Assembly (NCBI GenBank): GCA_019634695.1
Contig: JAHCAW010000017.1
Coordinates: forward strand, 7,322 to 71,321
Reading direction: 5' to 3'
DNA from: Candidatus Sumerlaeia bacterium
GTDB lineage: Bacteria > Sumerlaeota > Sumerlaeia > SLMS01 > JAHLLQ01
DNA: 64,000 nt
The stretch's first letter is position 1; each line of letters opens with the position of its first letter. The notes beneath the pieces are model-generated. The model worked only from the letters and a program-made list of their open reading frames with translations, was not told where the DNA came from and searched no databases. Shown piece after piece: positions 36,809-59,822 of the stretch. The translations under genes were made by a program, and so were the position numbers.

Positions 36809-37573
36809 ATGACGACGCAGCCCCAAGCCCATCCGCATCTGCTGGCCCGCGCGACGAAGCGCGTCTCGCGCGTCATCGCGTGGGGACTCGCTGCCACGCT
36901 GGGCCTCGTCGCTGCGACGACGGCCGCATGGGGGCTCGGCTATGCCGTCTACGCATGGCGCGGAAAGCCCAACAATCACGAGGCCCAGCAGCGCTTCATC
37001 GAGTCCAACGTCTTCCTCTCCAACGCCTTCACCCGACGAACGGATGGAGTGATCGCCGACCTGCGCCCCGGACTTCCCGAGAGGTTCTTCCTCAACAGCA
37101 CGCGCCATCGTTGGAGCGAGGCCAGCGGGGGATTCCTGCGCCATGGCCCCGCCGCGAGCGTGACCTACTGGAAGGCGCCCGACGGCATCGTCACGCGCTA
37201 CACGTTGGTGGTGCTCGACATCGAGAAGGAGCGACTGCAACTGGCCTCGGCACGCCTGCACATGACGCTGGGACCGAGCGATGCGACCGTCCTGCCGCCC
37301 GACCCGGCGACGCCCGGCGAGCTGCTTCTCGTCTGGCGCCAGCAGGACCGCATGGCCACGGCCGAGATTCGGCCCGAGAGCAATGGCACCTTCACGCTGG
37401 TCGTGCAGCAGATCCATCGCCTCGACCCGCGCTTCGCCCTGCGCCATGAGACGGGCGGTCTGCCGCGATGGCATCGTCATGCGGCGCGCATCGCGGAGCA
37501 ACTCGCCACGACATCAGAGGGGTCCGTGGGCTGGGACCGCGAGGATATACAGATTATCTGGGAACCTCGGTAG
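36809..37573 (+). CDS. hypothetical membrane-anchored protein
   Basis: ATG at 36809 (MTTQPQAHP...). It has a single N-terminal TM (VIAWGLAATLGLVAATTAAWGL). No recognisable domain. Confidence 0.4.
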   Translation: MTTQPQAHPHLLARATKRVSRVIAWGLAATLGLVAATTAAWGLGYAVYAWRGKPNNHEAQQRFIESNVFLSNAFTRRTDGVIADLRPGLPERFFLNSTRHRWSEASGGFLRHGPAASVTYWKAPDGIVTRYTLVVLDIEKERLQLASARLHMTLGPSDATVLPPDPATPGELLLVWRQQDRMATAEIRPESNGTFTLVVQQIHRLDPRFALRHETGGLPRWHRHAARIAEQLATTSEGSVGWDREDIQIIWEPR

Positions 37574-39014: not shown

Positions 39015-39469
39015 GGCTCGCGCTCCCGATGCAGCAGCAGGGCCGCGACGAGATCGCCCGCTTCCGGCACGGGCACGTTCGCGGACAACTCCTCGGGTCG
39101 CCGCGGCGTTGCTTCCAGCCAGCAACGCACATCATGACCGGCCAGCGCATGAGCCAGCATCGGCGCCAGATCGGGCTCGAAGCAGACCACGTCGCGCACG
39201 CTGCGGCCGAAGACCGTTCGGCCGAGCACGACATCGACGCACGTCTCGATGCCGGGTTGCGGTCGTTCGACTTGGAAGAACGGATGCCGCGACGCCGGCG
39301 GATAGCCGATGCGAATGATTTCGGAGTCGGCGGTGTAGTCGGAGGGTACGCCGGCGGTGCCGTGCTCGATGCGAACGACGAGCAGCGGGCGGCCCACGGC
39401 GTCGGCGAGCAGGTCGCGCGCTTCGTCCCGCGCCCGCACGCCCTCCAGCAGCAGCACCCGCGTCCTCAT
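39011..39469 (-). CDS. hypothetical cytoplasmic protein, translationally coupled between two Wzy_C genes
   Basis: 152 aa. Its ATG overlaps the stop of the upstream Wzy_C-TPR gene (39466-39469) and its own stop overlaps the next ATG (39011-39014). Confidence 0.4.
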   Translation of the reverse strand: MRTRVLLLEGVRARDEARDLLADAVGRPLLVVRIEHGTAGVPSDYTADSEIIRIGYPPASRHPFFQVERPQPGIETCVDVVLGRTVFGRSVRDVVCFEPDLAPMLAHALAGHDVRCWLEATPRRPEELSANVPVPEAGDLVAALLLHREREP

Positions 39470-42400
39470 GGCGGCGGCGCCTCGGGGCCGAGCAGCGTGG
39501 CCAGTTCGTTGGCGCGGTTGCGCACGACGAGCGACTCCTGGCGGTCGGTGGTGCGCTGGGCGACGAAGTCATACAGGCGCAGCGCCTCGAGCAGCGCCTC
39601 GCGCAATGCAGGCGTGTCGGCGATGGGCAACGGCTCGTTGGCGCGGCGAGCGGCATCCTGGCGCGCGGCGAGTTTGCCCATGTCGGCGCGATGCGGCGCG
39701 AGCAGCGATTCCGCCAGCAGCACCCATGCGGCGTTCCACGGCGGCGGGTCCGCGATGGCAAGGCGGGCACGGGCGAACTCGGCCGCCACGTCGGGACGTC
39801 CGAGGATCGCTTCCAGATGAATGCCGGCATCGATCAGCGACTCGGGCTGTCGGGTGCCCTGCTCGAGCAGCGCATCGTATTCTCGGCGCGCGGCCTCGGG
39901 GTCCTGGCGTCGATCGGCTTCGGCCGCGGCGAGCAGGCGCCGCAGCATGTTGCGGTACTCCCGAGGTCGCCCTTCGAGGGCCAGCAGCGGATGGTCGAGT
40001 GCCGTGGTGGCCAGGTCGAAGCGCTGCTCGCGCAGGGCGATGAGCGCTTGCACGGCCGGACCGGTTGGATTCTCGATCTCGAGGAGCTTCTCGGCGAGCA
40101 GCCGCGCGGTCGGCAGGTCGCCATGCAGGGCGGCCGTCGTGGCGGCGTGCTCCCGGAAGGTGAGGTTCGCCGGGTCGATGCGCATCATCAGTCGGAAGCG
40201 TTCGTAGGAACGGCGATAGTCGAGCAGCGCACGTTGCTTCAGCGCATCCTTCAGGATCGTCTCGTTGAAGTAGAGCGGGTGGAAGTGGTAGAGCAGCCGA
40301 TAGAGATGATCGACCTCTGCCTCGGAGCGGGCACCGAAGCGTTCCTTCCACTCGATGAGGGTGCGGACCATGTCGGGGTCGCCCGGGTTCATCAGCACGG
40401 CGAACTCGAGGTCGGCCATGGCGGCGTGCAGGGCGGCGTCGCGTTCGATGCCCTCGGAAAACCGGTACGTCTGGTAGTGGATCAGGGCGCGCTGGTAGTA
40501 CGAGCCGTGGAAGCGGAACTCGTTGAGCGAGCGATTGAGGAGTTCGAGTGCCTCTCCGGCGGCGATCAGGCCGCGCCGACGCATATCCTCGGCGAAGGAA
40601 TTGTCGCCGGCACGCAGGGCGGCGGAACGCTCGCGGTCCAGGTTCGACGCTGCGATATAGAGCACGCGCGCGCCGTAGTAGTAGGGCTCGCCGTGCAGCG
40701 GTATCAGCCGGCGCGCGTCCTTCAGGTTCTGGTGGCCCTGCATGATGTACTGCGGATCGGGCGACTGTCCCTGCGCCTGAAGATCAAGGTAGGCATCCAT
40801 GGCACTCTGCGCGCGAAGACTCAAGGTGTTGGCGGCGAACCACTCGCAAGCCATCGCGGAGATGGCGACAACGGCCGCGGCGAGCAGCGGGACGAGCGCG
40901 AGCCATGCGCCGGCCAGCGCGGTCTGGAGCTTCGAGCCGTTCGTCGCCGGGCCCTTGCGGCGAGCGGGCGGCGGGGGAGGCTCGCCGGTGCCGGATGCGC
41001 GCTCGTCCAGCTTGGCCACGGGGATCAGCCACAGGCGGTCGCCCGCGCTCCACATGGCCAGCAGGAGCACAAGTGTCGCGGAAAGCGGCGCCACGCGCAG
41101 CGGAAAGTCGAGCAGGCAGTGCACCAGCATGGCGACCAGCGACGTCAGGATCGCCATCTGCAACGCGATGTGGCGTTGTCGGAAGGTGCGGCGCACCGTC
41201 TTCCATCCCGACAGCAGGATCGCCGTCACGCCCGCCAGCGCCAGCGCCAGCCCGAGCAGTCCGGTCTCGAACAACGTCTGCAAGTACTCGTTGTGCGCAT
41301 GGAAGGACTTGCGCGGCGTCGGCATGATGCGCGACTCGGGATTCGCCGCGTAGTACTCGCCCTGTGCCTGCGGGTAGACAAAGTGGAACGAGCCGAATCC
41401 CGTGCCGAGCAACGGATGGCTGCGGATCACCGGCCACGAGCAGACCGGAATGCGCAGGCGCGTCTCGGTCAGCAGGTGTTCCGGCGCCATGTGCTGGATG
41501 CGGACCGCCAGCGGCAGGTTCTTGCGATACAGCGGATTGGCCGGGTGCTTGATGAACTGGCTGAGTAGCAGCACCGCGAGCACGAGTGGAATCGCCACCC
41601 AGATCGCCAGCGGCGGCCGCAGGCCCGCGCGCCGCGCCAGCAGCGCCACCAGCGCCCCGAACGCCACCAGCAGAATCGGAATCACCGCGCGGCTCTGTGC
41701 CATGATCAGCGCCACCGCCATCACGGCCATCGCCCCCCACACCAGCGCCTTCACCCACTTGGCCATCCGGTCGCCGTGCGTCATCAGCAACGTCCACGCA
41801 ATCAACAGCGGCGCGATCATGAACGACGACAACGCCGTGTTGTGGCCGATGAACCCGGCAACGTCGTTGCGATAGTTGTCCGGTCCCCACTTCACCCAGA
41901 TCGCCGACAGGCCCGGCAGGCCCGCGTGCACGAGCACGGCGACCGCCGCCGCCACAACGCCCAGCCCGAGGATCAGGCCCAACAGCTTGTAGACCAGACG
42001 CCGCGTGCGAATCGCATCCTCGGCAACGACGAAGAACAGCAGGCCGCCCAGCACCTGCACCCATGCGGTCCATGCGTGATAGGTGCCCGCGCCCTGCGGC
42101 ATGGCCATGCGATGCAACCACGCGAAGAGCCCCGCGCGGGCACCCTCGAGCGCTTCGGCCTCCGGCGCGATCGGCACCGCGTCCACCGGCGGCTTCGGCG
42201 CCCAGCCCAGTCCGCTGAACGACACCAGCGCCAGCACCAGATACCCCACGATGCAGAGCAACGGGACCAGCCGCCCCCAGTCGCGCCGCGATGGCGTCGC
42301 CACCGGCGGCAGCACGGGCACGCGGAAGAAGGCCTCGTACAGGCGCGCCAACAGGTGCGCCGCGAACAGCGGCAGCGCCGCCAGCAGCCACACCGTCGTC

Positions 42401-42723
42401 TTGAGTTCGAGCACCGGCAGGCCCTGCGACAGGAACGGCGCGAAGTCCTGAATCAGCAGGGCGAAAGGATTCGCGCCCGGCACGACCGGTGCCCCGTCGT
42501 TCAGGCGCATCATCCAGTCGCTCAGCCGCACGAGCCACGACTCGGGAAGACTGAGGTGGTAGGCCAGAACGGCCCCCAGGAAGGCGGCCATCAGGGCCAG
42601 CTCGACGAACTTGCCGAGCACCAGCGGCACCGTGAGCCGCGCGGCGGGCTCGTCCGGCACGGCGCGCCGGCGCCGGACCCGCGTGGCGCTCGACGACCCC
42701 GCCTTCTTTCGGTGTTTCGCCAT
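39466..42723 (-). CDS. O-antigen ligase-like (Wzy_C) membrane domain fused to a C-terminal TPR-repeat domain
   Basis: ATG at complement 42721-42723 (MAKHRKKAGSS...). It has ~12 TM helices with the GTGFGSFHFVYP...HAHNEYLQTLFETGLLG ligase signature. A ~550-aa helical TPR-like tail follows. Confidence 0.65.
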   Translation of the reverse strand: MAKHRKKAGSSSATRVRRRRAVPDEPAARLTVPLVLGKFVELALMAAFLGAVLAYHLSLPESWLVRLSDWMMRLNDGAPVVPGANPFALLIQDFAPFLSQGLPVLELKTTVWLLAALPLFAAHLLARLYEAFFRVPVLPPVATPSRRDWGRLVPLLCIVGYLVLALVSFSGLGWAPKPPVDAVPIAPEAEALEGARAGLFAWLHRMAMPQGAGTYHAWTAWVQVLGGLLFFVVAEDAIRTRRLVYKLLGLILGLGVVAAAVAVLVHAGLPGLSAIWVKWGPDNYRNDVAGFIGHNTALSSFMIAPLLIAWTLLMTHGDRMAKWVKALVWGAMAVMAVALIMAQSRAVIPILLVAFGALVALLARRAGLRPPLAIWVAIPLVLAVLLLSQFIKHPANPLYRKNLPLAVRIQHMAPEHLLTETRLRIPVCSWPVIRSHPLLGTGFGSFHFVYPQAQGEYYAANPESRIMPTPRKSFHAHNEYLQTLFETGLLGLALALAGVTAILLSGWKTVRRTFRQRHIALQMAILTSLVAMLVHCLLDFPLRVAPLSATLVLLLAMWSAGDRLWLIPVAKLDERASGTGEPPPPPARRKGPATNGSKLQTALAGAWLALVPLLAAAVVAISAMACEWFAANTLSLRAQSAMDAYLDLQAQGQSPDPQYIMQGHQNLKDARRLIPLHGEPYYYGARVLYIAASNLDRERSAALRAGDNSFAEDMRRRGLIAAGEALELLNRSLNEFRFHGSYYQRALIHYQTYRFSEGIERDAALHAAMADLEFAVLMNPGDPDMVRTLIEWKERFGARSEAEVDHLYRLLYHFHPLYFNETILKDALKQRALLDYRRSYERFRLMMRIDPANLTFREHAATTAALHGDLPTARLLAEKLLEIENPTGPAVQALIALREQRFDLATTALDHPLLALEGRPREYRNMLRRLLAAAEADRRQDPEAARREYDALLEQGTRQPESLIDAGIHLEAILGRPDVAAEFARARLAIADPPPWNAAWVLLAESLLAPHRADMGKLAARQDAARRANEPLPIADTPALREALLEALRLYDFVAQRTTDRQESLVVRNRANELATLLGPEAPPP

Positions 42724-42878
42724 GACTCCGCGGCCCGCAAGGCCCTCCGTCGGCGCACGATTCCAGCCCCCCGCGAGGCATGCCAAGCGAAAAGCCCCGC
42801 CCCACCAGAGCCGTTGACACCCGCCGCCGCGGACGACTTGCCTTGGGCAGCCGTTCGGGGTGCCCAGGAGGAAGGACC

Positions 42879-47086: not shown

Positions 47087-50000
47087 TCAGACGCCGAGGA
47101 CCTCGCGTCGCGCCTGCTTGAGCGCCTCGACGATGTCCTCGCCCTTCTCCCAGCGGTCTTCCTTCTCTTTGGCGAGGCACTTGGCGATGATGTTCCAGAG
47201 CGCATCCGGGCAGTTCTCCGGGCGCTGGGGCTGCTGGTGCATGTGCTGGTAGGCAAGGTCGCCCTGGATGAAGGGCGGCCGGCCGGCGACGAATTCGTAG
47301 AGCATGATGCCGAAGGAATACAGGTCTGCGCGGTTGTCGACGGCGATGCCCTGCACCTGCTCGGGCGACATGTACAGCGGCGTGCCGATGACGGCGCCCA
47401 CCATCGTGCCCTCGCCCGAGTTCATCGTCGAGTCCAGCATCTTGGCGATGCCGAAGTCGGTGACCTTCACCTGGTTGGTGCTGGTCAGCATGATGTTGGC
47501 GGGCTTGATGTCGCGGTGCACGATGCCGAGCCGATGCGCGTAGCCCAGCGCGTCGGCGATGTCGATCGCGTACAGGAACAGGTCCTCCATCGACAGCTTG
47601 CCTTCGGTCTTCACGCGCTTCTTGAGGTCCGAGCCGTCGACGTACTCCATCGAGATGTACTTGCGGCCCATTTCCTCGCCGATGTCGTGGATGCGCACGA
47701 TGTTGGGGTGCGACAGGCGGCGGGCGTTGCGGGCCTCGATCTTGAAGCGGCGCACCGCCTCCGGGTTGTTCGACATGGCGTCGGGCAGGATCTTGAGGGC
47801 GACGACCTCCTCGAGCTCCTTGTCGCGGGCGCGGTAGACGATGCCCATGGCGCCGCGGCCCAGCTCGTCCAGCAGTTCGTAGCGGCGCTTGGCGTCCTCG
47901 CTCATCTGCTGAACGATGCTCGTCTTCTCGAAGGCCATCGGGTCGCTCGTCGAGCCCGACAGCATCTCGAAGCGCGTCTTTACGTCCTTGTAGTCGATAT
48001 CGGCGGCGAAGAGCTGGCGATATACGGTCTTGGCGCCCACAAGGTCCTTCTTGCCCTCGTAGCGCTGCGCCAGATCGTACAGCAACTCCTTCGTTTCCTC
48101 GTCCACCACCAGCTTCTTGAACTCCTGCAGGGCCAGGTCGAGCATGCCCTTGTTCGTGAAGCACTTGCCGAGCATCTTGATCGACTCGGCTTCCCAGCGG
48201 TAATCCTGGGCCGTCTTCTGGAAGCAGCCGATCGCGCTGTCGTATTCCTGGATCATGTAGTACAGGCGGCCGAGGCGGAAGCGCACCTCCACTTCGTCCT
48301 TCTGCGTCAGGATGCGCTCGTAGACGTCGGCGAGCGCGCGGATCACCTCGGGGCTGTTGGGCTGCAGCTTGTAGGCCTTCTCGAGCGAGGCGCGCGCCCG
48401 CGCCATGTCCCCGGTCGCGACGAGGATCCGCGCCTGGCTCTGGAGCGCCGGCAGGTACTGGCCCTCCTTCGACAGGATCTTGTCGAGCGCGCCAAGCACG
48501 TTCTGCGCGTGGTTCGGGTTGTTGCTGTAGATCCAGTCGAGCTGTTCCATCGCCTCGCGCAGGTGCCCGTAGGCCACCAGCAGCTCGCACAGGAACCAGC
48601 GCACGCGCATTGCCTCGGGGTGCTGTTGCAGCATCTGGCCGATGTGGCGCAGCAGCGTCTCCTCCGCGCCCGGGCAGGACCGCATGACGTTCTGGTAGCT
48701 TTCGACGGCCTTGACCGTGTCGTTGCGTTCGAGGTGCACGCGCGCCAGCGCCAGGTGCAACTCCGGCACGTCGCTGCGCACCTGGAGTGCCCGCTGGTAC
48801 AGGCGCGCGCACTCGTCGTCCGCGCGTCCCTTGTGCGCGTAGGCCATCGCCAGGTGGAACATGGCCTCCTGATCGTTCGGGTTGCGCTGCAGGATTGCGG
48901 TATACTCGCGCACGGCCTCGTCGAGCTTGTTGTCGTAGAGGCTGGCGAGGGCGATCAGGCGCTTGAGCTCGCCGTCGTCGGGATGGTGGCGCAGCAAGGC
49001 CTGCGCCGTGCCGAGCGCGTCCTGATAGCGGTTCGCCTTGATGTAGGACCGGACGAGCATCGCACCGATGTTGCGGTCGGCGGGATCGTTGACCAGATGT
49101 GCCTCGTAGACGGGGATGGCTTCGCCGCCCTCGTCCTCCTTGCGCTCGAGCACAGTTGCCAGCGCCTTGACGAGCTGGGCGTTGTCGGGTTCGGCGCGCA
49201 GGGCCTCGCGATAGACGCGCTCGGCCTCGGGGCGATAGACCCCGGTTGCCATGTAGGAGCGCGCGAGCTGGCGCGAGTACTGGGCCTCGCCGAAGCCGAG
49301 CTGGAACAGCGTCTCGATGACGTCGATCGCCAGGTCGTGCGTGCCCGCCAGGCGTGCCGTCTCGGCCAGCGCCTTGAGCGTCACTGCATCGTTGGGATTC
49401 GCGCGCCGCGAGCGGTGATAGATGTCGACGGCGGGCTTCGTGAAGTTGCCTGCCCGGAAGTGAATCTCCGCCAGCGTGCGTAGCAACTCGGCGTCCTCGG
49501 GCTGCAGGGCCAAGGCGCGTTGGAAGGCCTCCTGCGCGGCTTGGTCCCCGCGGCCTTCCACCAGGTAGCACTGCGCCAGGAGCTGGATCGCGCGCTCGTT
49601 GGACGGCTCGACCTGAAGCGCCGACTTCGCCTCCTCGACCGCGCGTCCCACCTCGTTCTTCTGCATGTAGATCGTGCACAGGTGGCAGTAGGCCGGCACG
49701 TAGGAGCGGTTGTACTCGAGCACGCGATGGCAGAGCGACTCGACTTCGGCGTCGCCCTTCTTGGCGTCGATGCACGAATCCAGGTAGGCTTCGAGGAAGC
49801 GCGAGTCCTCCTGGCGTCCCTGGAACTGCTGGTGATAGACGGGCAGGGCCTTTGCCGTGCGGTTGTTCGTTTCGAGATACACGTCGCACAGGGCGGCATA
49901 GACGTGGTTGGCGGTCAGTCCGGCGCGCAGGGCGGCACGCAGGCGCTTGGCCGCCTCGTCGAAGTTGCCGGCCTCCTTGTGGCACATGCCGATGGCGTAC

Positions 50001-51994
50001 TCGAGCACCTGCGGCTCGGGGAAACTCTTGAGGGCGGCCTCGAAGACCGCGCGGGCTTGGGCGTCGCGCTTCTCGCCCTGCAGCAGCGCCCGTGCGTAGC
50101 AGTGCAGCAGGTTCGGGTTCTCCGGGTCCTTCTCGTGCGTGCGCCGGTAGATGTCGATCGTGCGCGCGTCGAAGTTCTTGTTCGACATGTAGACCATCGC
50201 CAACGTCGCGACGATCTTCTGGCTGCGGGGCTTGCGCGCCAGCAGGCGCTCGTACAGCACCTCGGCCTCGTCCATGCGACCCTTGGAAACCGATGTGCGC
50301 GCGCGGCGCTCCAGATGCGCCAGATACACGAAGCGGCCAACAACATACGTCAGCAGCAGCAGGACCGCCAGCACCCCGACGCCCGCAGCGATCAGCCAGA
50401 CCAGATTTCGCCGAATCCACATCTGGCGATACTGCGACTGGTACTGGACGTTGAAGGGGTCGTAGTCCCGTAGCGTGGCCGCCGCCGCCAGCGCCTCGTC
50501 CCAGTCCTTGGCCTCACGGGCCGTATTGAACCGGTCAGCGATCTTGGCCACTTCGGCCTCGAGCCGCGCCGCGCGCTGGCTCTCGCGTTGCAAGTAGACT
50601 AGGTCCACCCGCGCGTTGCGTCGCGGCGTCGCCGCCCGTGTCATCCACGGCGACAGCCATGGAGAAAGCGATGGCCACTCCGGCGAGCGATCGACTGAAA
50701 ACGTCCGTCCCGTGTCGATACCGAACAACATCCCCTGCAATGTCATCCCGATCAGGTGGTACTTGAAGGCGTTGCGTCCGCCCTCCTGCTCCGGCACGCC
50801 GATCACCGGCATCGTGTGGCCCACGAACTGGCCGATCGAGACGACCTGCGGCTCGTCCAGCGCCGGCACTCCTTGGAACCAACTGCTTGTCTCCAGCATC
50901 CGCACCTGCGTGCCCTGCGCGAACGCCAGCACCGGGAAGCCGCCATGGTGGTTCCACAGCACGGACAACTGCGAGTTGATCCCCGCGAACGATGTCCGGT
51001 CGCCGCGCAGCATCGCGCGCCTGGACACGTCGATCGCGACCAGACCGGCCGAACCCAGACCCTGGAAGATCAGCGCCTCGCCCGGGCCGCGATCCTTCGG
51101 CATCACCAGCACCGGATCGCCCGTCACCGCCCCGCCGCCACCTGTCGCGAACCGATTCAGCACGTCCAGCCGGTCCGTCGCCGGATTGTGGGTCCGGATT
51201 TCGATGTCGCCGTTGGCCAGCGTGAAGACGAGTTCGTCGCGCCCGTTGCCGGTAAGGTCCGCCAGCAACACCGTTGTGGCGATGCCGTGTTGCTCGGAGA
51301 TATTGTATTGGGTGGCACGGCCGGTGAACGACTCGATCAGCAGAAGCTTGCCGTCGCTGGTCGGCACCGCGATGTCGATCTGTCCGGAGATTCTCGGCGA
51401 GCCCAGCGAGAGCGGAGCGGCGGCCTTCGAGCCGGTGCGCACCGGCTCCCAGTAGGACTTCGCCTGCCGTGCGTCGTCCAGATAGACCGAGATCACCTGT
51501 CCGCCCTGATCGGCCAGCACCACGATCTCGGTGAAGGTGCCCGGGCTGCCCGGCAACGGCAGGTAGACCACCGTCGGCGATTCGACGAACGAGTTTGTCG
51601 AGACCTGTGCCTCGGCGATCGGAGTAAGGTTTCCGCCGTTGAGGAAGACGACACGGCCGTCCTCGGTGCCGAAGGCGATGTCGAGCGACGAGTCACGGGC
51701 GAAGTCGCCCACCACCGGGGCCGTCAGCGACCGGCGCGCCTCGTCCACCGCCTGCAGGATCATCTCACCCGACGTCGCGTCGAACACCGCGATGCGGCCC
51801 CCGACGTCCGTCGCGATGATCTCGGGCACCTCGTTGCGCACCAGATTGGCGGCGATAACCGCGTTGGGGGTATCCAGCGGCGTCTTGCGTCGCGTGAAGG
51901 TCTCACGCGGCTCGTCCGCCCATGCGCCGAACCCTCCCGCAACGAGCCCCGCCGCCAGCAGACTCGCGCCTCGCCGAACCTGTATGCCCATCAC
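47087..51994 (-). CDS. giant transmembrane Ser/Thr protein kinase (~1635 aa): signal peptide, extracellular FG-GAP/VCBS-like beta-propeller region, one TM, ~800 aa of TPR repeats and a C-terminal Hanks kinase domain
   Basis: N-terminal signal MMGIQVRRGASLLAAGLVAGGFGAWA. Repeats such as TDVGGRIAVFD and LADLTGNGRDELVF are FG-GAP-like. TM is LVWLIAAGVGVLAVLLLLTYVV. Many TPR-like helices follow. The kinase motifs at the C-terminus are GRGAMGIVYRA, VALK, HRDIKPANIML, DFGIAK and SPEQ. Confidence 0.8.
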   Translation of the reverse strand: MMGIQVRRGASLLAAGLVAGGFGAWADEPRETFTRRKTPLDTPNAVIAANLVRNEVPEIIATDVGGRIAVFDATSGEMILQAVDEARRSLTAPVVGDFARDSSLDIAFGTEDGRVVFLNGGNLTPIAEAQVSTNSFVESPTVVYLPLPGSPGTFTEIVVLADQGGQVISVYLDDARQAKSYWEPVRTGSKAAAPLSLGSPRISGQIDIAVPTSDGKLLLIESFTGRATQYNISEQHGIATTVLLADLTGNGRDELVFTLANGDIEIRTHNPATDRLDVLNRFATGGGGAVTGDPVLVMPKDRGPGEALIFQGLGSAGLVAIDVSRRAMLRGDRTSFAGINSQLSVLWNHHGGFPVLAFAQGTQVRMLETSSWFQGVPALDEPQVVSIGQFVGHTMPVIGVPEQEGGRNAFKYHLIGMTLQGMLFGIDTGRTFSVDRSPEWPSLSPWLSPWMTRAATPRRNARVDLVYLQRESQRAARLEAEVAKIADRFNTAREAKDWDEALAAAATLRDYDPFNVQYQSQYRQMWIRRNLVWLIAAGVGVLAVLLLLTYVVGRFVYLAHLERRARTSVSKGRMDEAEVLYERLLARKPRSQKIVATLAMVYMSNKNFDARTIDIYRRTHEKDPENPNLLHCYARALLQGEKRDAQARAVFEAALKSFPEPQVLEYAIGMCHKEAGNFDEAAKRLRAALRAGLTANHVYAALCDVYLETNNRTAKALPVYHQQFQGRQEDSRFLEAYLDSCIDAKKGDAEVESLCHRVLEYNRSYVPAYCHLCTIYMQKNEVGRAVEEAKSALQVEPSNERAIQLLAQCYLVEGRGDQAAQEAFQRALALQPEDAELLRTLAEIHFRAGNFTKPAVDIYHRSRRANPNDAVTLKALAETARLAGTHDLAIDVIETLFQLGFGEAQYSRQLARSYMATGVYRPEAERVYREALRAEPDNAQLVKALATVLERKEDEGGEAIPVYEAHLVNDPADRNIGAMLVRSYIKANRYQDALGTAQALLRHHPDDGELKRLIALASLYDNKLDEAVREYTAILQRNPNDQEAMFHLAMAYAHKGRADDECARLYQRALQVRSDVPELHLALARVHLERNDTVKAVESYQNVMRSCPGAEETLLRHIGQMLQQHPEAMRVRWFLCELLVAYGHLREAMEQLDWIYSNNPNHAQNVLGALDKILSKEGQYLPALQSQARILVATGDMARARASLEKAYKLQPNSPEVIRALADVYERILTQKDEVEVRFRLGRLYYMIQEYDSAIGCFQKTAQDYRWEAESIKMLGKCFTNKGMLDLALQEFKKLVVDEETKELLYDLAQRYEGKKDLVGAKTVYRQLFAADIDYKDVKTRFEMLSGSTSDPMAFEKTSIVQQMSEDAKRRYELLDELGRGAMGIVYRARDKELEEVVALKILPDAMSNNPEAVRRFKIEARNARRLSHPNIVRIHDIGEEMGRKYISMEYVDGSDLKKRVKTEGKLSMEDLFLYAIDIADALGYAHRLGIVHRDIKPANIMLTSTNQVKVTDFGIAKMLDSTMNSGEGTMVGAVIGTPLYMSPEQVQGIAVDNRADLYSFGIMLYEFVAGRPPFIQGDLAYQHMHQQPQRPENCPDALWNIIAKCLAKEKEDRWEKGEDIVEALKQARREVLGV

Positions 51995-52198: not shown

Positions 52199-53842
52199 CT
52201 ACAGGGAGCGACCGAACAGGCGCCACGTGCCCTGCGCTCCCAATCGGTCGTACCGAACCGCCCCCCACAGCACCCCGACCCGCCGCTCGTCCGGCCGCTC
52301 AGGCCCCGTCCAGTCCTCCCACGACACCAGTCCCAGATTCAACCGACGACGCTCGACGCCCAGCCAATTCCGCTCCCGCCGCCACATCGGCCCCGCCACC
52401 ACGACGGTCTCGTGCTTGCGACCCGCCGTCACCTCGCGCGACCACAGCGTCCACAATGGCGCCCAGTTGCGGTCCACCGACTCGGCCTCGGTGTAGGGGA
52501 ACAGATGCGGCGCGCTCTGGTAGCTGCTGCCGTCCTCGCGATGGATTTCCCGCCAGAGGGGGAAGATCATCCGGCGGTGGCTCTCGCGCCCGTCCTGCCA
52601 TTGGTTGGTCTGGCGCGCGTAGAAGGGCAGCACATAGCGGCGGTCGAACACCAGGTCCGGGTCCGTCGTGCGTCGCCAGACGTGGAAAGGCCACGGAGCC
52701 AGCAGGTGCTCGGTGCGTCCGTTGCTGCGTCGCACGTAGAAGGGGAAGACGCCGCCGCCCTCCATGGCCCGCCGACGCGGCTGGCCCTCGGCATCGGCGA
52801 AGGCCGGGTCCACCGGAATCCGGCTGGTCCACCGCCCGATGAACCACAGCACACGGTGCTCGCGCACCCCGGTGCGCAGGTTGTCGTCCTGATTGTACAG
52901 CGCCAGTGCCCAGCCCCGCGTCCGGCGACCCGCCATGTCCAGTCGCCCGTAGAACGGGAACACCATGTCGAAGCGCACTTCGGGCGAGCGCACCCGTCCC
53001 CACAGCGGGATGAAGGCGTTGACCTCGCGACGTTCGTCGCCTTGGCCCTCGACCCGGTAGTGACCCAGTGGCCACAGCCAGTACGCGCGCTTCAGCTCAC
53101 CCGGGCGCTCGACGTAGGCCACCAGCGGCCAGGCGCGGAAGCCCCACAAGCCCCCACCGCCGGAGATCCAGGACAGGAAAGGCCAGGGTACCGAAGTCTG
53201 CACCAGGCGCTCGTCACCCTCGCCGCGCGTCGAGCGCACGAACAACGGCCAGGCGGCGAACTCGATCCGGTCGCGATTCCAGAAGCCGCGGAAGTCGCCC
53301 CAGAAAGGCCACAGGGCGCGGATGTTCTGGGGTCGGCGCGGGAAGATGGGGAACGCCAGCTTCGCATCATTGGCCCGCCAGTAGAATGGAAACAGGATCA
53401 GATAGTCGCCGCCCGACTCGCGATGCCCCTGCCAGTAGAAGGGGAACAGGTAGCGCGTGGCCGTCTGCTGGCCCTCCTTGCGCCCCTGCGTCGAATACCA
53501 CAGCGCGAAGAGTTCCGACGTCGTGCGGTTCTCCCAGCCGGGCGTGCGCTCGCGGTGCGACCAGGTCCACAGAGGCCATAACACGTCGACCTGACGCTCG
53601 CCCGCTTCGGGACGTTCGACACGCGAGTAGAACGGATGGATGGCCAGCAGCGATTCGTCGGGCGCCTGGCGCCAGCGCACGAAGGGCCACAGCACCCAGC
53701 CCTGGCGATTCGCGTCGTCGTCCTCGCGTGTCGGCGTGGCCACCTCGGCGCCCGGCGCAAGCGCGCAAGCCAGCAGGACAAGCAGCACCAGCGCCGCCTG
53801 TGCACCCATGCGCCCCCGCAAGCCGGTCGTCGTCTCAGACAT
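52199..53842 (-). CDS. secreted tandem-repeat protein with ~23 aromatic 'WPF/PFY(W)xR' repeats (unknown family)
   Basis: 547 aa with a signal peptide (GAQAALVLLVLLACALAPGA). Recurring ~20-25-aa units are centred on VLWPFVRW, IHPFYSRV, VLWPLWTW, LFPFYWQG, LFPFYWRA, LWPFWGDF, AWPLFVRS, VPWPFLSW, VFPFYGRL, VFPFYVRR, APWPFHVW, VLPFYARQ, IFPLWREI. The start overlaps the upstream HK stop by 8 nt. Confidence 0.6.
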   Translation of the reverse strand: MSETTTGLRGRMGAQAALVLLVLLACALAPGAEVATPTREDDDANRQGWVLWPFVRWRQAPDESLLAIHPFYSRVERPEAGERQVDVLWPLWTWSHRERTPGWENRTTSELFALWYSTQGRKEGQQTATRYLFPFYWQGHRESGGDYLILFPFYWRANDAKLAFPIFPRRPQNIRALWPFWGDFRGFWNRDRIEFAAWPLFVRSTRGEGDERLVQTSVPWPFLSWISGGGGLWGFRAWPLVAYVERPGELKRAYWLWPLGHYRVEGQGDERREVNAFIPLWGRVRSPEVRFDMVFPFYGRLDMAGRRTRGWALALYNQDDNLRTGVREHRVLWFIGRWTSRIPVDPAFADAEGQPRRRAMEGGGVFPFYVRRSNGRTEHLLAPWPFHVWRRTTDPDLVFDRRYVLPFYARQTNQWQDGRESHRRMIFPLWREIHREDGSSYQSAPHLFPYTEAESVDRNWAPLWTLWSREVTAGRKHETVVVAGPMWRRERNWLGVERRRLNLGLVSWEDWTGPERPDERRVGVLWGAVRYDRLGAQGTWRLFGRSL

Positions 53843-55592
53843 CCTTGTTGACGGTCGCGTTCGTGTCCTGGCCGAGGACCAGCTCGTCCTCGTCCGACAG
53901 CGCGGGCAGCTTGATGATGAATGTGGTCCCGACGTTCTCTTCCGACTCGACCGTCAGGGCGCCGCGCATGTCCTCGATCACCTTGCGGCACATCGGCAGG
54001 CCGAGTCCGGTGCCGGACGAGCCCTTGGTGGTGAAGAAAGGGAGGAAGATCTTGTCGAGCTTCTCGCGCGGGATGCCCGCGCCGTTATCGGCCACCTTGA
54101 TGATGAGGCTGCGCTGCGCGTCATCGGCCACGCTCGTGACGATCTCGATGTGGCCCTGGCCGTGTGGGATCGCCTCGATGGCGTTGACGATCAGGTTGGC
54201 GAGCGTGCGTTGCAGGCCGATCTCGTCGGTCCAGCGCTCCCCGATGCCCTCCTCAAGATCGAGCTCGAGCGTGATGCCCTTGCGTACCAGCTCGCTCTCG
54301 ATCTCCTCGGCGGTCGAGCAGATCAGCGCGTTGATGTCGATCATCCGGATGCGCGGGCGCTTCTGGCTCGAGTACTCGAGCATGTCCTTGACCAGCTTGC
54401 TGATCTTCTCGATGCCGCGGCTGACAACGCCCCAGGACTCTTTAGCGGTCTCGACCTTGTTGGCCGCGAAGGCGCGCTCGAGCAACTCGCTGCCGCCGTT
54501 CATCAGCAGCAGGATGTTCTTGATGTTGTGACTGATGCCGGCCACCGTCTCGCCGACTGCGGCCAGGCGCTCGCGGTGCGTCGCCTCGCGCCGCATCCGG
54601 ATGTTCTCGAGCGCCAGCGACAGGTCGCCCGCGATCATCGTCACGAACTCCAGGTCGTCCTTGTCCAGCGTCTTGCCGATCGACTGCGTGTCCAGATGAA
54701 CGACGCCCATCACGCGCTCGCCCTGAATCATCGGCACGCAGATAACCGACTGCATCTTGTTCATGATGATCGATTCGCTGGCGCCGAATCGGTCGTCCGA
54801 GCCGGTGTCGGTGCTCAGCACCGCACACCGGTCGCGCACCACCTGGTCCAGGATCGTCTTCGACAGCGAGATGCGCGTGCCCGGAATAATCTCGTCCTGC
54901 GTGCGCACGGCCGCGATTTCCAGTTCCGTCGAGGCCGGCGAGAACCGCGTCAGGATCACGCCACGATCCGCCGCCACCGCGTCGAACAGGATGTCGAGCA
55001 CGCGCTCGATAATCGTCTGCTCCCGGTCGCCCTCGGCCTCGCGCAGCAGTTCCGACAGCCGGTACATCGCCGTCAGACGGTTGTGCGACTTCACCAACTC
55101 GCTCGGATCGAGCGCCCGAGCCTCCTTCACCGAGATCGGTGCCGTGAAGAACGAGGACCGTTCCCGGATTGCCTCGATCTGGTCGCTGCCGATCACCGAC
55201 TGCGTCTGCGGCCGCGGCGCATCCGTGTCGTCCTTGAACTCCACGATGCTCATTCCGCCGACCTCGAAGTTCGAGGAGGAGCGCCCCGCCGTCGCCTCGT
55301 TGCGGAACGTGAACTCGATCGCCCCGAACGTCACCTCGTCGCTGTGGTGCAGCGTCATCTGCGTGACGCGCTCGCCGTTGACGTACGTCCCGTTCGAGGA
55401 ATTCAAGTCCTGCAGGATGAAGAAATTGCCGCGCTTGTCGATGCGCGCATGGAACCGCGACACCGAGTCCGTCCCCAGCACCACGCTGTTCGACGGGTGC
55501 CGGCCGACCGTCGTCGTGTCCGTCAGCTCGTACTCCGGCTTCAGCCCGGGCGTCGGCGTGCGCAGCGTCAGCTTCGGCTTCTGGTCGGCCAT
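53835..55592 (-). CDS. sensor histidine kinase with N-terminal FHA domain and central GAF domain (FHA-GAF-HisKA-HATPase_c), no TM
   Basis: ATG at complement 55590-55592 (MADQKPKLTL...). FHA core is TVGRHPSNSVVLGTDSVSRFHARI...LNSSNGTYVNGERV. H-box is AGISHNIKNILLL. The ATPase G-boxes are VADNGAGIP and GSSGTGLGLPMC. Confidence 0.75.
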   Translation of the reverse strand: MADQKPKLTLRTPTPGLKPEYELTDTTTVGRHPSNSVVLGTDSVSRFHARIDKRGNFFILQDLNSSNGTYVNGERVTQMTLHHSDEVTFGAIEFTFRNEATAGRSSSNFEVGGMSIVEFKDDTDAPRPQTQSVIGSDQIEAIRERSSFFTAPISVKEARALDPSELVKSHNRLTAMYRLSELLREAEGDREQTIIERVLDILFDAVAADRGVILTRFSPASTELEIAAVRTQDEIIPGTRISLSKTILDQVVRDRCAVLSTDTGSDDRFGASESIIMNKMQSVICVPMIQGERVMGVVHLDTQSIGKTLDKDDLEFVTMIAGDLSLALENIRMRREATHRERLAAVGETVAGISHNIKNILLLMNGGSELLERAFAANKVETAKESWGVVSRGIEKISKLVKDMLEYSSQKRPRIRMIDINALICSTAEEIESELVRKGITLELDLEEGIGERWTDEIGLQRTLANLIVNAIEAIPHGQGHIEIVTSVADDAQRSLIIKVADNGAGIPREKLDKIFLPFFTTKGSSGTGLGLPMCRKVIEDMRGALTVESEENVGTTFIIKLPALSDEDELVLGQDTNATVNKDV

Positions 55593-55650
55593 CGATTCCT
55601 CGCGACAAGGCGGCGATTGCGGCGCCCCGGACGGACAACCGGGACGCGCC

Positions 55651-56028
55651 CTAGTCCAGCGCAAACTCCGGCTCGGGCCGGAACCGCTGAGCCACCAGGT
55701 CGAAGTGCACCCGGCGCGTGTCCCGGACTGGAAACGGCATCATCTCCATCAACAGATCCGGCCCCATCCACAGATACGGTGGCGCCTTGAAGCGCTCCCG
55801 CCGCACGGCCGGCTCGTGCCCCGCAAGATCAGCCTTGAAATCATAGTACCAATACCACGTGAACGGCATCTCCACCGGCGTGCGACCCAGATGAATGTCG
55901 TTCATGTGGATATCCGCACCCGGTGGGTCCGACGTCACCACCACCTTGCTGCGCACGCAGCCCGTCGCCCCCAACGCCATCAGCGCCGTCGCCATCACCG
56001 CGCAACACCAGCGTTTCCAGACCGCCAT
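55651..56028 (-). CDS. PEGA-domain lipoprotein
   Basis: Lipobox MATALMALGATGC. This is followed by VVVTSDPPGADIHMNDIHLGRTPVEMPF, matching the PEGA pattern (PxGAxVxxDG...G.TP). Confidence 0.5.
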   Translation of the reverse strand: MAVWKRWCCAVMATALMALGATGCVRSKVVVTSDPPGADIHMNDIHLGRTPVEMPFTWYWYYDFKADLAGHEPAVRRERFKAPPYLWMGPDLLMEMMPFPVRDTRRVHFDLVAQRFRPEPEFALD

Positions 56029-56125: not shown

Positions 56126-57067
56126 TCAGGCTGGCGCCTCCGATATCCGGCCCAGTCGTGGCGGCTCGATCCAGTCATAGCTCGACGGGTTCCGCTCCCA
56201 CGCCTTGCGATGCAGGTCGCACTGGTGCCAGAACGCCCACGCGCCAGTCACCGGGTGGCGCGGCGCCACCGCCTCGCCCAGCGCCTCGCTCGCCGCCTGC
56301 GACAACGCCGGCAGCAGCGAGGAATCGAACGCATCACCCAAACCTCGATGCACCAGGTTCGCGATCAGGATACAGGTGTCCGTAATCCCGGAACGCTCGC
56401 CCACGCCGTTCACCGACGTCGACACGAAGTCCGCTCCGCCGTCGAGAGCCGCCAGCGCATTCGCCGTCGCCAGACCCCGGTCATTGTGCAGATGCGCCTC
56501 GAGCGGCACGCCGGGGAACCGCTGCCGCAGCTCGGCGAAGAGTTCCCGCGCCTGATCGGGCTCGAGCACCCCCAGCGTGTCAGGGCAGCACAGACGGTCG
56601 GCTCCCGCCTCGATGGCGACCTCGCAGGCGCGCCACAGGTCGGCCGGCTCGGTGCGAGTCGCATCCTCGACACTGTACCGAACAGTCAAGCCCGCCTGCT
56701 TGGCGGCCATGATTGATTCCCGGGCCATCGCCAGCAGGTCCTCCCGGCCGCAGCCCGGCGTTCGCGCCTCGATGGTCTGCCGGTTCACGCCCAGGAAGAT
56801 CCCGACCCCGTCGGCTCCCGAGGCGATCGCTGCCCGAATGTCGGCCTCCCGGGCCCGGGCATGCGTCATCACCTTCGCCTGACGGCGCGCTGCGAGCACG
56901 GCCGCCAGAATCTCGTCCCAATCCGGCCGAGCCCCGGCGTGCGTGCACTCGATATGTCGGATGCCGACGGCCTCCAGCAGCGGCACCAACGCCGCCGCAG
57001 CCTCCGGCCGCACCGCCACCCGGCACGCCTGCAAACCCTCCCGCAATGTGGCGTCAATCAGGTGCAA
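56126..57067 (-). CDS. HMGL-like (DRE-TIM metallolyase / pyruvate carboxyltransferase) enzyme, homocitrate/citramalate-synthase-like catalytic domain only
   Basis: TTG start with GGGGAGG SD. The N-terminal IDATLREGLQ corresponds to the DxTLRDGxQ motif. The EAHLHNDRGLATANALAALDGGADFVSTSVNGVGERSGI region carries the second HxH metal site. At 313 aa it lacks the C-terminal regulatory domain of IPMS. Confidence 0.6.
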   Translation of the reverse strand: MHLIDATLREGLQACRVAVRPEAAAALVPLLEAVGIRHIECTHAGARPDWDEILAAVLAARRQAKVMTHARAREADIRAAIASGADGVGIFLGVNRQTIEARTPGCGREDLLAMARESIMAAKQAGLTVRYSVEDATRTEPADLWRACEVAIEAGADRLCCPDTLGVLEPDQARELFAELRQRFPGVPLEAHLHNDRGLATANALAALDGGADFVSTSVNGVGERSGITDTCILIANLVHRGLGDAFDSSLLPALSQAASEALGEAVAPRHPVTGAWAFWHQCDLHRKAWERNPSSYDWIEPPRLGRISEAPA

Positions 57068-57158: not shown

Positions 57159-59822
57159 ATGCCATTTGCTGGGACAACCTCGTTGCGCGCCTTGCTTCCC
57201 AACCTGATCGAGTCGATTGCCGCCTCTGCCGAGTGTTCCGTGCCGTATACGACGATCTGGGACCGCTTCCTGACGGTGGCGCGTCATGCCCCGAGTCGCG
57301 TGGCCGTTTCTTGGGAAGAGGGAGAGATCACATGGGGGGCGCTGGCATCCCGGGCTACTGGCGTCGCGACCTGCCTGGCCGATGTCGGCATCGGGCATGG
57401 CGACGTGGTCGCGTTCCTGCTTCCGCCCGACGCCGATCACTTTGCCTGCTTCCTCGGCATTCTTCAGCGCGGCGCGATCCTGCTCTCCCTGGACGCGGCC
57501 AGCCCGCCCGATCGCCTGCGGCGCGTGCTCGAGCACAGTGGCGCCGCGGCCGTCTTCGTCAACGCCGCAACCCGCTCCCGGATTGAGTCCTTGGGCCTGC
57601 CGGTTCTGCGCCAGATCGCTGTCGAATCCGTGGTGCCCTGCCCGGTCGAGAACCTGCCGCCCAGCCCCGCCGCCTCCGACAGCGTCGCCAGCTTGCTCTA
57701 CACCTCCGGCTCGACGGGCGAGCCCAAGGGCGTCATGCAGCTCCACCGCAACCACCTGCGCATCTCGCACCAGTACCGGACGATCCACGCCATCACGCCC
57801 GAGGACCGCGTGGCGCTCGCGCTGCCTCCCTCGGGTGCCAGCGCCCGCACGGACATCCACGCGGCTCTGATGTGCGGCGGCATCCTGGCCTGCCGCCATC
57901 TCGCCCGCCACGGGGCCGCCGGCTTGGGCGAGTGGGTGGACGATCAGGCAATCACCATCCTCCATTTGGTGCCGACGCTCTACCGCGCCATGGTCCGTGC
58001 GCTGCCGCCCGACAGGGTGCTTTCCAGTGTACGCGTCGTGCGCCTGGGCGGCGAGGCCCTGCGCCAGCAGGACCTCGAGACCTTCGCCCGCCACTTCCCG
58101 CCCGACGCCGTCCTGTCTTGGTCGCTCAGCACCACCGAGGCTTCCTTCGCCACCATGATGCACTGGCGCGCGGGCGATCCGCCACCCGGCGATCCCCTGC
58201 CCTCCGGCTTTCCGATGCCCGACCCCGGAATCATCATCGTCGACGAGCAGGGCACTGAGCTGCCCGCCGGCACCACCGGACGCATCGTTCAGCGCGGCAC
58301 CGTCCTCTCGCCCGGCTACTGGCACGCCCCGGAAACGACGGCCAAGTTCTTCAGTGACGACCCGGTCGGTGGCGGAGTCCGGCGCTTCTTCACCGGTGAC
58401 CTTGGACACATCGACGCCCAGGGCCGGCTCGTTCACGAGGGGCGCCTCGACTATCACGTCAAGATCGCGGGCAATCGCATCGACCCGGCCGAGGTCGAGG
58501 AAGCGATCTGTCGCCATCCCGACGTCGATGAGGGCGTCGTCATCCCGCGCACCCCGGCCACCGGCGACTCCTGGCTGCACGCCTTTGTCACCGTCCGCGG
58601 GACGGTGACCACTGCCCAGTTGAAAGCCCATGTCGCCGGCCTGCTGCCCGCCCACCTCGTGCCGGCCCGCATCGAGTTCCTCGACCGCATGCCGCTGACC
58701 GCCACCGGCAAGGTGGACCGCGCCGGCCTGCGCAAACGCTCCGAGGCACCGGAAGCCGCTGCACCCGAACGCCCGGCCGACCACTTCGAACTCGGCCTGC
58801 GCGACGTCTGGCGGGAGATTTTGCGCCAGCCCGAACTTGGCATCGACGCAGGCTTCTTCGAGCACGGTGGCTCCTCGCTCGACGCCGTCACGGCCCTCGA
58901 GGAGGTGCGTCGCCGCTTCGGCGCCGAGATCGAACCGCAAGCCCTGCTTGAGAGCCCCACCCCGCGCGAGCTGGCCGCCCACCTGCGCGGCGCCGCCCCC
59001 CGACGCTGGCGTCATCTCATGGGCGTCTCGACCACCGGCGACGGACTCCCCTTCTACTGCGTGCCTCCCAACGGGCGGACGGCCTACTCCTTCGAGCCGC
59101 TCGGTCGCCTCATGGCCGGCGAGCGGCCGCTCTATACCTTCCATCCGCTCGGTGCCCTGCCGGGCGAGACCCCGCACCGGACCATCGCCGAGATGGCCGC
59201 CGCCTACGTGCGCGAGCTGCTGGACCATCGCCCCGAGGGGCCCTTCCTGCTGGGCGGGCGCTGCGGCGGTGGCATGGTCGCCTGGGAGATGGCCCGGCAG
59301 CTCACCGCCGCGGGCCACGAGGTTCCGGTGGTCGTTCTGCTCGAGACCAAGCGGGCGCCCTATCCGGCCGACCGCCTGCTGCGCCTGCGCTACGCGACGG
59401 CCGTCGTGGCCGGCCTTCCGTTCGCCCCGCGCGCCGGCGAGGCCAGCCGATGGTTTGTGCACCGGATGCTGGCCCGTCTGCGGGCGCCCGGCCACCCGGC
59501 CGCCCGCGAACCCGAGAACGACGATGCGCCGTCCGTCTTTCCCAGCGAGCGCGAGCGCGCCATGCTGCAAGCCCACAACCGCGCCTGTTTGCACTATCGC
59601 GTCGCCCCGGCGGCGACCCGTCTGGCGCTCGTGCTCGCCGAGGCCGGCAATGCCTTCATCGACCACCAGCGCGCCGTGCTCTGGCGCCTGCTTGCCCGAC
59701 GCGGCACGGAGTTCCACGTCCTGCCGGGCGACCACCTCCAAACGCTGGCCGGCGACAATCTGGTCCGCGCGGCCGGTGTGGTCTTAGACATCTGCCGCCG
59801 CGCCGAGCAGTCGGCAGGGTAG
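57159..59822 (+). CDS. stand-alone single-module NRPS-like protein: adenylation - peptidyl carrier - thioesterase (A-PCP-TE). The TE nucleophile position is occupied by Cys.
   Basis: A-domain cores are LYTSGSTGEPKGV (A3), FTGDLGHIDAQGRL (A7), GRLDYHVKIAGNRIDPAEVEEAI (A8) and PLTATGKVDR (A10). PCP motif is FFEHGGSSLDAV. The TE region has GGRCGGGMVAWE (a GxCxG in place of GxSxG) and a downstream PGDH. AGGTGAG SD is 5 nt upstream of the ATG. Confidence 0.8.
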   Translation: MPFAGTTSLRALLPNLIESIAASAECSVPYTTIWDRFLTVARHAPSRVAVSWEEGEITWGALASRATGVATCLADVGIGHGDVVAFLLPPDADHFACFLGILQRGAILLSLDAASPPDRLRRVLEHSGAAAVFVNAATRSRIESLGLPVLRQIAVESVVPCPVENLPPSPAASDSVASLLYTSGSTGEPKGVMQLHRNHLRISHQYRTIHAITPEDRVALALPPSGASARTDIHAALMCGGILACRHLARHGAAGLGEWVDDQAITILHLVPTLYRAMVRALPPDRVLSSVRVVRLGGEALRQQDLETFARHFPPDAVLSWSLSTTEASFATMMHWRAGDPPPGDPLPSGFPMPDPGIIIVDEQGTELPAGTTGRIVQRGTVLSPGYWHAPETTAKFFSDDPVGGGVRRFFTGDLGHIDAQGRLVHEGRLDYHVKIAGNRIDPAEVEEAICRHPDVDEGVVIPRTPATGDSWLHAFVTVRGTVTTAQLKAHVAGLLPAHLVPARIEFLDRMPLTATGKVDRAGLRKRSEAPEAAAPERPADHFELGLRDVWREILRQPELGIDAGFFEHGGSSLDAVTALEEVRRRFGAEIEPQALLESPTPRELAAHLRGAAPRRWRHLMGVSTTGDGLPFYCVPPNGRTAYSFEPLGRLMAGERPLYTFHPLGALPGETPHRTIAEMAAAYVRELLDHRPEGPFLLGGRCGGGMVAWEMARQLTAAGHEVPVVVLLETKRAPYPADRLLRLRYATAVVAGLPFAPRAGEASRWFVHRMLARLRAPGHPAAREPENDDAPSVFPSERERAMLQAHNRACLHYRVAPAATRLALVLAEAGNAFIDHQRAVLWRLLARRGTEFHVLPGDHLQTLAGDNLVRAAGVVLDICRRAEQSAG

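Follow-up and report, generated by a model that had tools for sequence, protein, structure and literature searches.

A 64,000-nt stretch of a Candidatus Sumerlaeia bacterium genome (contig JAHCAW010000017.1, positions 7,322 to 71,321; hereafter the window, on which all coordinates are numbered) contains a gene encoding a 547-amino-acid (aa) exported protein made of aromatic-proline beta-hairpin repeats, which we refer to as the repeat protein. It belongs to a large, unnamed family that has no database entry. In the Sumerlaeota, the repeat gene follows genes encoding a PEGA-domain lipoprotein and an FHA-GAF histidine kinase, and in other phyla members of a sister clade are encoded in mlaE-mlaF-mlaD operons. 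Combining these data, we tentatively read the repeat protein, with a confidence that stops a little short of even, as a membrane- or lipid-binding envelope protein that would be a partner of MlaFED in the sister clade and would be coupled to a kinase pathway in the Sumerlaeota. The novelty lies at the level of the protein family and its probable role; for the fold class, that of an open antiparallel hairpin meander, there are precedents.

The GC content at third codon positions (GC3) of the open reading frame (ORF) encoding the repeat protein is 0.87, like that of the neighbouring genes (GC content of the window, 67%). The protein is rich in aromatic residues (W 6.8%, F 5.5%, Y 3.1%), arginine (13.7%) and proline (6.9%), and has a net charge of about +16, with family means ranging from +13 to +19. 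The motif [WFYLIVMH]P[FLWIVMY] occurs 20 times, versus 4.5 +/- 2.0 expected from 5000 shuffles, and its strict 5-mer form occurs 15 times, versus 0.6 expected. The hydrophobic periodicity peaks at 18.5-21 aa with z values of up to 12.5, compared with a null maximum of 8.2, and the distance from one motif Pro to the next is mostly 17-22 aa. Throughout the repeat region, tips of the form h-h-[WF]-P-[FL]-[FYW] alternate with turns rich in G, D, E and R. As read from the sequence, an Arg is present at position +3 or +4 in about half of the units; about four hairpins lack the Pro. Near the C-terminus, residues 457-465 form a family-specific motif, DRNWAPLWT, that is not part of the repeats. The sequence-only reading had described about 23 aromatic WPF-type repeats of 20-25 aa. 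The repeats are real, since the motif count and the period statistics exceed the shuffled null, and their number agrees with the ~24 hairpins of the model described below; the unit itself is shorter than had been proposed, about 19-20 aa. Homologues with as little as 22% identity keep the repeat pattern, which is therefore not a frameshift artefact.

An AlphaFold2 model computed with a 71-sequence alignment has a mean predicted local distance difference test score (pLDDT) of 93.1 and a predicted TM-score (pTM) of 0.82. The model is all-beta, as had been anticipated from the sequence, with about 47 strands of 5-9 aa, mostly 5-6 aa, corresponding to ~24 hairpins. Every second gap between strands is a 3-4 residue [WF]-P-[FL] segment, and the gaps in between contain many G, D, E and R residues. 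The Pro segments could be hairpin turns, or kinks inside ~24 long barrel strands, and this question was addressed by mean-field direct coupling analysis (DCA) of 314 non-identical family sequences (Meff 281). Many of the top-scoring couplings link residues placed symmetrically on either side of a Pro turn (residue pairs 176-184, 192-205, 190-204, 215-226, 292-298, 363-371, 380-389 and 130-138). For adjacent strands, the best antiparallel diagonal averaged 0.32 when a Pro turn joins them and 0.34 when the turn is polar, with non-adjacent strands at 0.09-0.12; the adjacent-strand scores are inflated by the short sequence separation, the parallel-register control being 0.25. The strand pairs demanded by a model of long, kinked strands (offset 3 around the polar turns) scored 0.107, which equals background. 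This negative result for the barrel model is in agreement with the AlphaFold2 strand map and the fold matches. The repeat protein is modelled as one long antiparallel meander of short strands. Neither by residue separation nor by strand offset did the long-range covariation show a clear peak for a superhelical or blade period.

When the full model was compared with the PDB using Foldseek, nothing superposable was found among the top 50 matches listed (query TM-score, TMq, <= 0.18), which included multi-propeller proteins, teneurin and Tc YD shells, and OspA. The propellers (PQQ, Kelch, WD40, YWTD and FG-GAP) resemble the repeat protein in their short antiparallel strands, and in having a super-repeat of ~40 aa if two hairpins are counted; they ranked at the top of the list and yet are not superposable (TMq 0.10-0.15 and root-mean-square deviation 24-35 A for LRP6, megalin, IFT-A and similar proteins), and no propeller family was matched in Pfam at E<=1. 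A separate model of a 181-residue fragment (residues 125-305; pLDDT 96) has the same strand pattern as the full model. Its best PDB matches are the TCP domain (G-box) of CPAP/SAS-4 (4by2; probability 0.98, TMq 0.33) and engineered OspA (TMq ~0.3), which are open single-layer sheets and not blades. The sequence-only reading had suggested a beta-propeller or a beta-solenoid. With TM-scores to propellers of ~0.1, the beta-propeller is not upheld; a classical beta-solenoid is not confirmed either, the data giving an antiparallel hairpin meander. Choline-binding repeats (CW_binding_1) were also rejected: they gave no Pfam match and were not among the top Foldseek matches.

The CPAP/SAS-4 G-box and the central sheet of OspA are, like the repeat protein, long antiparallel meanders of short strands and tight turns. 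They differ from it in that there is no sequence relationship, in that a TM-score of ~0.3 implies a different twist and curvature, and in having ~10-20 strands without a Trp-Pro tip; they are eukaryotic centriolar proteins or spirochaete lipoproteins. The YD/Rhs shells of teneurins and Tc toxin BC likewise have ~20-aa hairpins in one continuous antiparallel sheet, and matched the full model weakly (TMq 0.13-0.18). However, the repeat protein has no RHS_repeat Pfam match, its motif is hh[WF]P[FL][FYW] as opposed to YDxxGR, it is a much smaller protein, and nothing indicates that it encloses a toxin or cargo. We therefore rejected an identity as a YD/Rhs shell on the grounds of the missing profile match and a TMq of at most 0.18.

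A polarity profile was averaged over the 20 motifs of the repeat protein, 992 motifs of Sumerlaeota relatives and 3179 motifs of relatives from the Planctomycetes-Verrucomicrobia-Chlamydiae (PVC) group. Around the invariant Pro, positions -3 to +2 are 75-100% hydrophobic, with mostly aromatic residues at -1, +1 and +2, and beyond +/-5 of the Pro 30-55% of the residues are charged. All the Pro turns lie on one edge of the meander, and the protein is therefore a ribbon with one aromatic-proline edge and one charged edge, an arrangement that is a direct consequence of sequence and topology.

Pfam hmmscan at E<=1 and NCBIfam both returned no families for the repeat protein, and sequence and profile searches of the PDB returned no matches, in line with the earlier statement that it has no obvious family. 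Nothing meaningful was obtained either when 42 PVC-clade relatives were scanned singly against Pfam and 10 against NCBIfam, and literature searches found no description of the hairpin-repeat family. A phmmer-type search identified 177 relatives, all labelled hypothetical. The closest ones belong to Candidatus Sumerlaeota (58% down to ~28% identity), and the distant ones, of ~480 aa and 22-28% identity, to Kiritimatiellia, Lentisphaerae, Planctomycetes and Myxococcota. A profile mixing the Sumerlaeota and PVC clades, searched against 1.84 billion cluster representatives (clusters at 50% identity), yielded 3004 proteins with E<1e-3, of which 1194 had E<1e-30. To avoid circularity, a Sumerlaeota-only alignment was compared with a PVC-only alignment using hhalign, which aligned them over 428 collinear columns from the N- to the C-terminus (probability 100%, E 4.5e-59). 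Both clades share a landmark motif, which in the PVC clade reads ERNWAPLWTLY, and the PVC proteins lack the regions corresponding to residues ~148-174 and ~297-333 of the repeat protein.

The C-terminal ends vary within the family. Many relatives end in sequences such as ...RLLYFLKF, ...ELLWMKF or ...WEFFGKRF, which resemble those of outer-membrane proteins (OMPs); the repeat protein ends in ...WRLFGRSL, and many members add a tail. Among the PVC-clade proteins, many C-termini have the form ...RLLYF[LF]K[FW], similar to an outer-membrane beta-signal (for example P0076, P0077, P0183 and P0252), and in others a short tail follows this motif. We also observed giant relatives of 1,000-1,800 aa with 5-12 matches to the family profile each (P0135, of 1767 aa, P0195, P0224, P0237 and P0253). 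They are lysine-rich, in the style of low-GC organisms, and contain FPFYW/LPFYW motifs dozens of times. The surroundings of the one giant gene examined, P0135, contain glycoside hydrolase genes and no mla genes.

The N-terminus of the repeat protein is a predicted Sec-type signal peptide: two arginines, R9 and R11, precede the hydrophobic core AQAALVLLVLLACALA, and in the AlphaFold2 model residues 8-28 form a helix that is followed by a linker of low pLDDT. A hydrophobic N-terminal segment is present in every close homologue. The earlier description of the protein as secreted is supported. Residues 23-26 (LLAC) might be taken for a lipobox; however, this single Cys of the protein is not conserved among homologues. 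We therefore rejected the lipoprotein reading, and assign the signals of the family to the Sec/signal peptidase I type.

Two distant homologues are encoded directly upstream of mlaE-(mlaF)-mlaD. A scan of metagenome contigs confirmed 532 relatives, and 80 loci were retained from this set. Among the PVC-clade loci with at least 600 nt of downstream sequence, mlaE is located directly downstream and on the same strand in 56 of 62, and MlaE, MlaF and MlaD are all encoded in 41 of the 44 loci with at least 2.5 kb of downstream sequence. Genes for GlmM and for a hexapeptide-repeat protein are often found upstream, and a few PVC-clade members are located outside mla operons, next to unrelated genes. 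The sister clade in mla operons spans Kiritimatiellia, Lentisphaerae, Verrucomicrobia, Planctomycetes and Myxococcota (L025-L104, L006-L008, L107 and L108). In a Planctomycetes member, the order is repeat gene-MlaE-MlaF-MlaD with a 4-nt overlap, and in a Myxococcota member it is permuted to MlaE-MlaF-MlaD-repeat gene. That the linkage persists across phyla despite a permuted gene order strongly indicates a functional partnership.

The MlaD proteins of the sister-clade operons consist of an MCE domain and a long helical extension, without a barrel. This agrees with a 2023 phylogenomic survey, according to which the MlaD proteins of the PVC and Fibrobacteres-Chlorobi-Bacteroidetes (FCB) groups lack the outer-membrane barrel found in other phyla, and MlaA and MlaC are sparsely distributed, mostly within Proteobacteria (PMC10665443). 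Therefore, no outer-membrane Mla partner is known for those lineages. The sister clade fills a niche like that of MlaA (VacJ) and PqiC, each being an extra exported component encoded together with an MCE ATP-binding cassette transporter. MlaA and PqiC differ from it in being lipoproteins of unrelated folds. The hairpin-repeat family has no conserved Cys in its signal peptide, and Pfam detected no homology to MlaA (PF04333) or PqiC in the repeat protein or in 42 PVC members.

In the Sumerlaeota, the genetic organization is different. The stop codon of the FHA-GAF kinase gene overlaps the start of the repeat gene by 8 nt (ATGTCTGA), and no terminator-like site was seen between the two genes. This overlap, pointed out in the sequence-only reading, was verified, and the order PEGA gene, FHA-GAF kinase gene, repeat gene is present in 14 of 16 species-representative Sumerlaeota loci, whose repeat proteins share 35-58% identity. 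The two exceptions are a locus without upstream DNA (L023) and one with 8 kb of upstream sequence and no kinase gene (L024). An FHA-GAF kinase gene is also located directly upstream of a relative with 28% identity. The question whether homologues always neighbour an FHA kinase gene can thus be answered with nearly always within the Sumerlaeota, and not outside the phylum. The PEGA protein is 45-77% identical across the Sumerlaeota, which is above the conservation of the repeat protein itself, and its orthologues conserve the lipobox and the sequence C-[VG]RS[KR]V.

The analysis establishes the repeat anatomy, the export signal, the size of the family, the collinear homology of the two clades and their two gene contexts. 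Lipid or membrane binding, the localisation of the repeat protein and any link between it and kinase signalling are what we infer from these data. The aromatic-proline stripe and the Arg-rich stems would bind membrane or lipid; the stripe could insert into one leaflet of the outer membrane, or form the lining of an acyl-chain track, with anionic head groups bound by the Arg residues. The sister-clade protein, encoded by a fourth gene of the mlaE-mlaF-mlaD operon, would probably be an acceptor or dock on the outer-membrane side for the long, barrel-less helical MlaD. In the Sumerlaeota, including the window, the gene has left the mla context; it is translationally coupled to that of the cytoplasmic FHA-GAF kinase, is preceded by the PEGA lipoprotein gene and often has a receptor Ser/Thr kinase gene nearby. 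The repeat protein and the PEGA lipoprotein would likely make up the envelope part of a signalling cassette, as the sensed component or as a co-sensor, and the receptor Ser/Thr kinase would probably address the histidine kinase via phosphothreonine and its FHA domain. A bolder version, which we consider somewhat unlikely, states that MlaFED in PVC bacteria, Myxococcota and relatives has its missing outer-membrane-side component in this family. The protein would be a monomeric, coiled single-layer ribbon whose Trp-Pro tips form a hydrophobic track or a membrane-inserted rim that receives the MlaD needle, and in the Sumerlaeota it would have been rewired to both kinases so as to sense the state of the envelope lipids.

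Several observations weigh against a lipid-binding, kinase-coupled envelope protein. Profile searches and fold searches of the PDB matched the repeat protein to no lipid-binding family or fold, and membership of an operon links the protein to the envelope without showing that it binds lipid. The aromatic stripe may be exposed, or it may be buried in a coiled core. No mla homologue is present in the window or in the Sumerlaeota loci around the repeat gene, and, according to one genomic study, Sumerlaeota have mla genes that one subgroup has lost (PMC8092238). Since the window gene is not beside mla and mla was reportedly lost in part of the phylum, the transfer of function from the sister clade is indirect. 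As to signalling, the histidine kinase, being cytoplasmic, can make no contact with an exported protein, the receptor Ser/Thr kinase that could bridge the two is encoded next to them in some genomes only, and three relatives (L005, L024 and L106) have no kinase neighbour.

An unlikely alternative that fares better than the others is a passive envelope scaffold or adhesin-like surface protein without a specific ligand, in which case the neighbourhoods would reflect co-expression only. OspA and the CPAP G-box are examples of single-layer beta-sheet proteins with a surface or scaffold role, the family includes giant multi-copy versions of 1,000-1,800 aa, and a minority of the members have unrelated neighbours. 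However, the operon linkage across phyla is tight, often with overlapping genes, despite the permuted order, and the Sumerlaeota cassette is kept down to 28-35% identity; together, these two patterns argue for a specific partnership.

The sequence-only reading had proposed that the aromatic ladder recognises carbohydrate or peptidoglycan. A protein that binds polysaccharide (chitin, peptidoglycan or exopolysaccharide) in the style of choline-binding proteins or carbohydrate-binding modules (CBMs) would agree with the aromatic-rich periodic surface, with the two Wzy_C-type proteins encoded 10-15 kb away in the window, and with the GlmM and hexapeptide-repeat protein genes upstream of PVC-clade members. 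We consider it very unlikely: no CBM, CW_binding, LysM, SLH or similar match was obtained, the aromatic residues are part of continuous hydrophobic hexamers with a Pro instead of being isolated planar residues on a polar face, and the conserved partners are mlaEFD and not glycan enzymes. The idea thus finds no support, and the mlaEFD context of the sister clade points to membrane or lipid.

Hardly plausible, finally, is an integral outer-membrane beta-barrel of ~24 strands, assembled by the beta-barrel assembly machinery (BAM), in which each 20-aa repeat is one Pro-kinked transmembrane strand: the signal peptide, a size typical of 22-26-strand barrels, the even number of units, the OMP-like C-terminal motif of many members and the barrel that MlaD itself has in some other phyla speak for it, but the covariation of kinked-strand pairs is at background whereas pairs placed symmetrically around the WP turns rank with the strongest, the charged stems have no alternating lipid-facing pattern, the strands are mostly 5-6 aa long versus ~9 or more needed, no outer-membrane barrel is among the top 50 PDB matches of the full model or the fragment, and the C-terminal motif is replaced by ...WRLFGRSL in the repeat protein and followed by a tail in many members.

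The features of the repeat gene and its cassette are collected in Table 1. The FHA-GAF kinase ORF of 609 aa begins with a TTG codon, and its first part (55592-55664 on the (-) strand) overlaps the PEGA gene by 14 nt. Because its orthologues are 576-585 aa long, the true start is probably M25 (MADQKPK), which would leave a gap of 58 nt to the PEGA gene. The 1635-aa kinase comprises a signal sequence, an ectodomain of ~500 aa that gave weak FG-GAP-like matches, one transmembrane helix, a long array of TPR repeats and a C-terminal Pkinase domain. It is syntenic in some genomes only: it is encoded downstream of the repeat gene in L001/L009 and L012, and L018 and L019 gave kinase-only matches.

Table 1. 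Coordinates in the window of the repeat protein gene, its parts and the neighbouring cassette and kinase genes.
Feature	Coordinates	Strand	Description
Exported beta-hairpin repeat protein gene	52199..53842	(-)	547 aa; ATG start; stop codon included
Signal peptide, residues 1 to ~32 (predicted)	53747..53842	(-)	R9/R11 n-region; hydrophobic core 14-29; read from sequence
Repeat region, residues 46-444	52511..53707	(-)	~39 short strands, ~20 hairpins; motif statistics, strand map, covariation, polarity profile, fragment model
C-terminal module, residues 445-547	52202..52510	(-)	Non-repeat motif; two short helices; 8 short strands without Pro motif
FHA-GAF-HisKA-HATPase_c histidine kinase	53835..55664	(-)	Pfam; upstream of repeat gene; no transmembrane segment
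125-aa PEGA-domain lipoprotein	55651..56028	(-)	Pfam PEGA E 1.2e-4; lipobox LGATG-C; first of three-gene cassette
1635-aa receptor Ser/Thr kinase	47087..51994	(-)	Pfam; downstream of repeat gene, 204-nt gap

The proximity of a receptor Ser/Thr kinase gene (47087-51994) and an FHA-GAF histidine kinase gene (53835-55664) suggests phosphothreonine-FHA coupling similar to that of the Esp system of Myxococcus, where Ser/Thr kinases act through the FHA domain of EspA. In both systems, an FHA histidine kinase is found beside a Ser/Thr kinase. The window kinase differs in its FHA-GAF-histidine kinase layout without a receiver, and in its partners, the PEGA lipoprotein and the repeat protein. Its kinase core matches the NCBIfam EspA/EspC models at 129 bits, far under the cut-off of 1400, and it is not an EspA orthologue.

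Elsewhere in the window, two adjacent genes on the (-) strand (37554-39125 and 39466-42786) encode membrane proteins of 523 and 1106 aa that each contain a Wzy_C domain (O-antigen ligase-like), a pair that points to a surface-polysaccharide locus. A 2369-aa ORF (9978-17087, (-)), whose sole match is to right-handed beta-helix repeats, probably encodes a very large secreted or surface protein, and a 790-aa ORF (33101-35473, (-)) has gene-like codon usage (GC3 0.88) and no Pfam match. An HMGL-like gene of the homocitrate/isopropylmalate synthase type (56126-57067, (-)) is divergent from a gene (57159-59822, (+)) encoding a stand-alone protein similar to non-ribosomal peptide synthetases, with adenylation, carrier and thioesterase domains.

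To our knowledge, the transport of phospholipids from one membrane to the other has yet to be worked out for most diderm bacteria. The hairpin-repeat family is a concrete and testable candidate for the unknown outer-membrane partner of barrel-less MlaD, because a large unannotated family with a confident and unusual all-hairpin model sits in the mlaEFD operons of exactly those lineages. With thousands of its proteins unannotated, it merits a database entry. The window gene itself belongs to a branch without Mla linkage, and its function is read from its context. It represents a second use of the module which, if true, would be an unusual link of an envelope repeat protein to Ser/Thr-kinase and two-component signalling.

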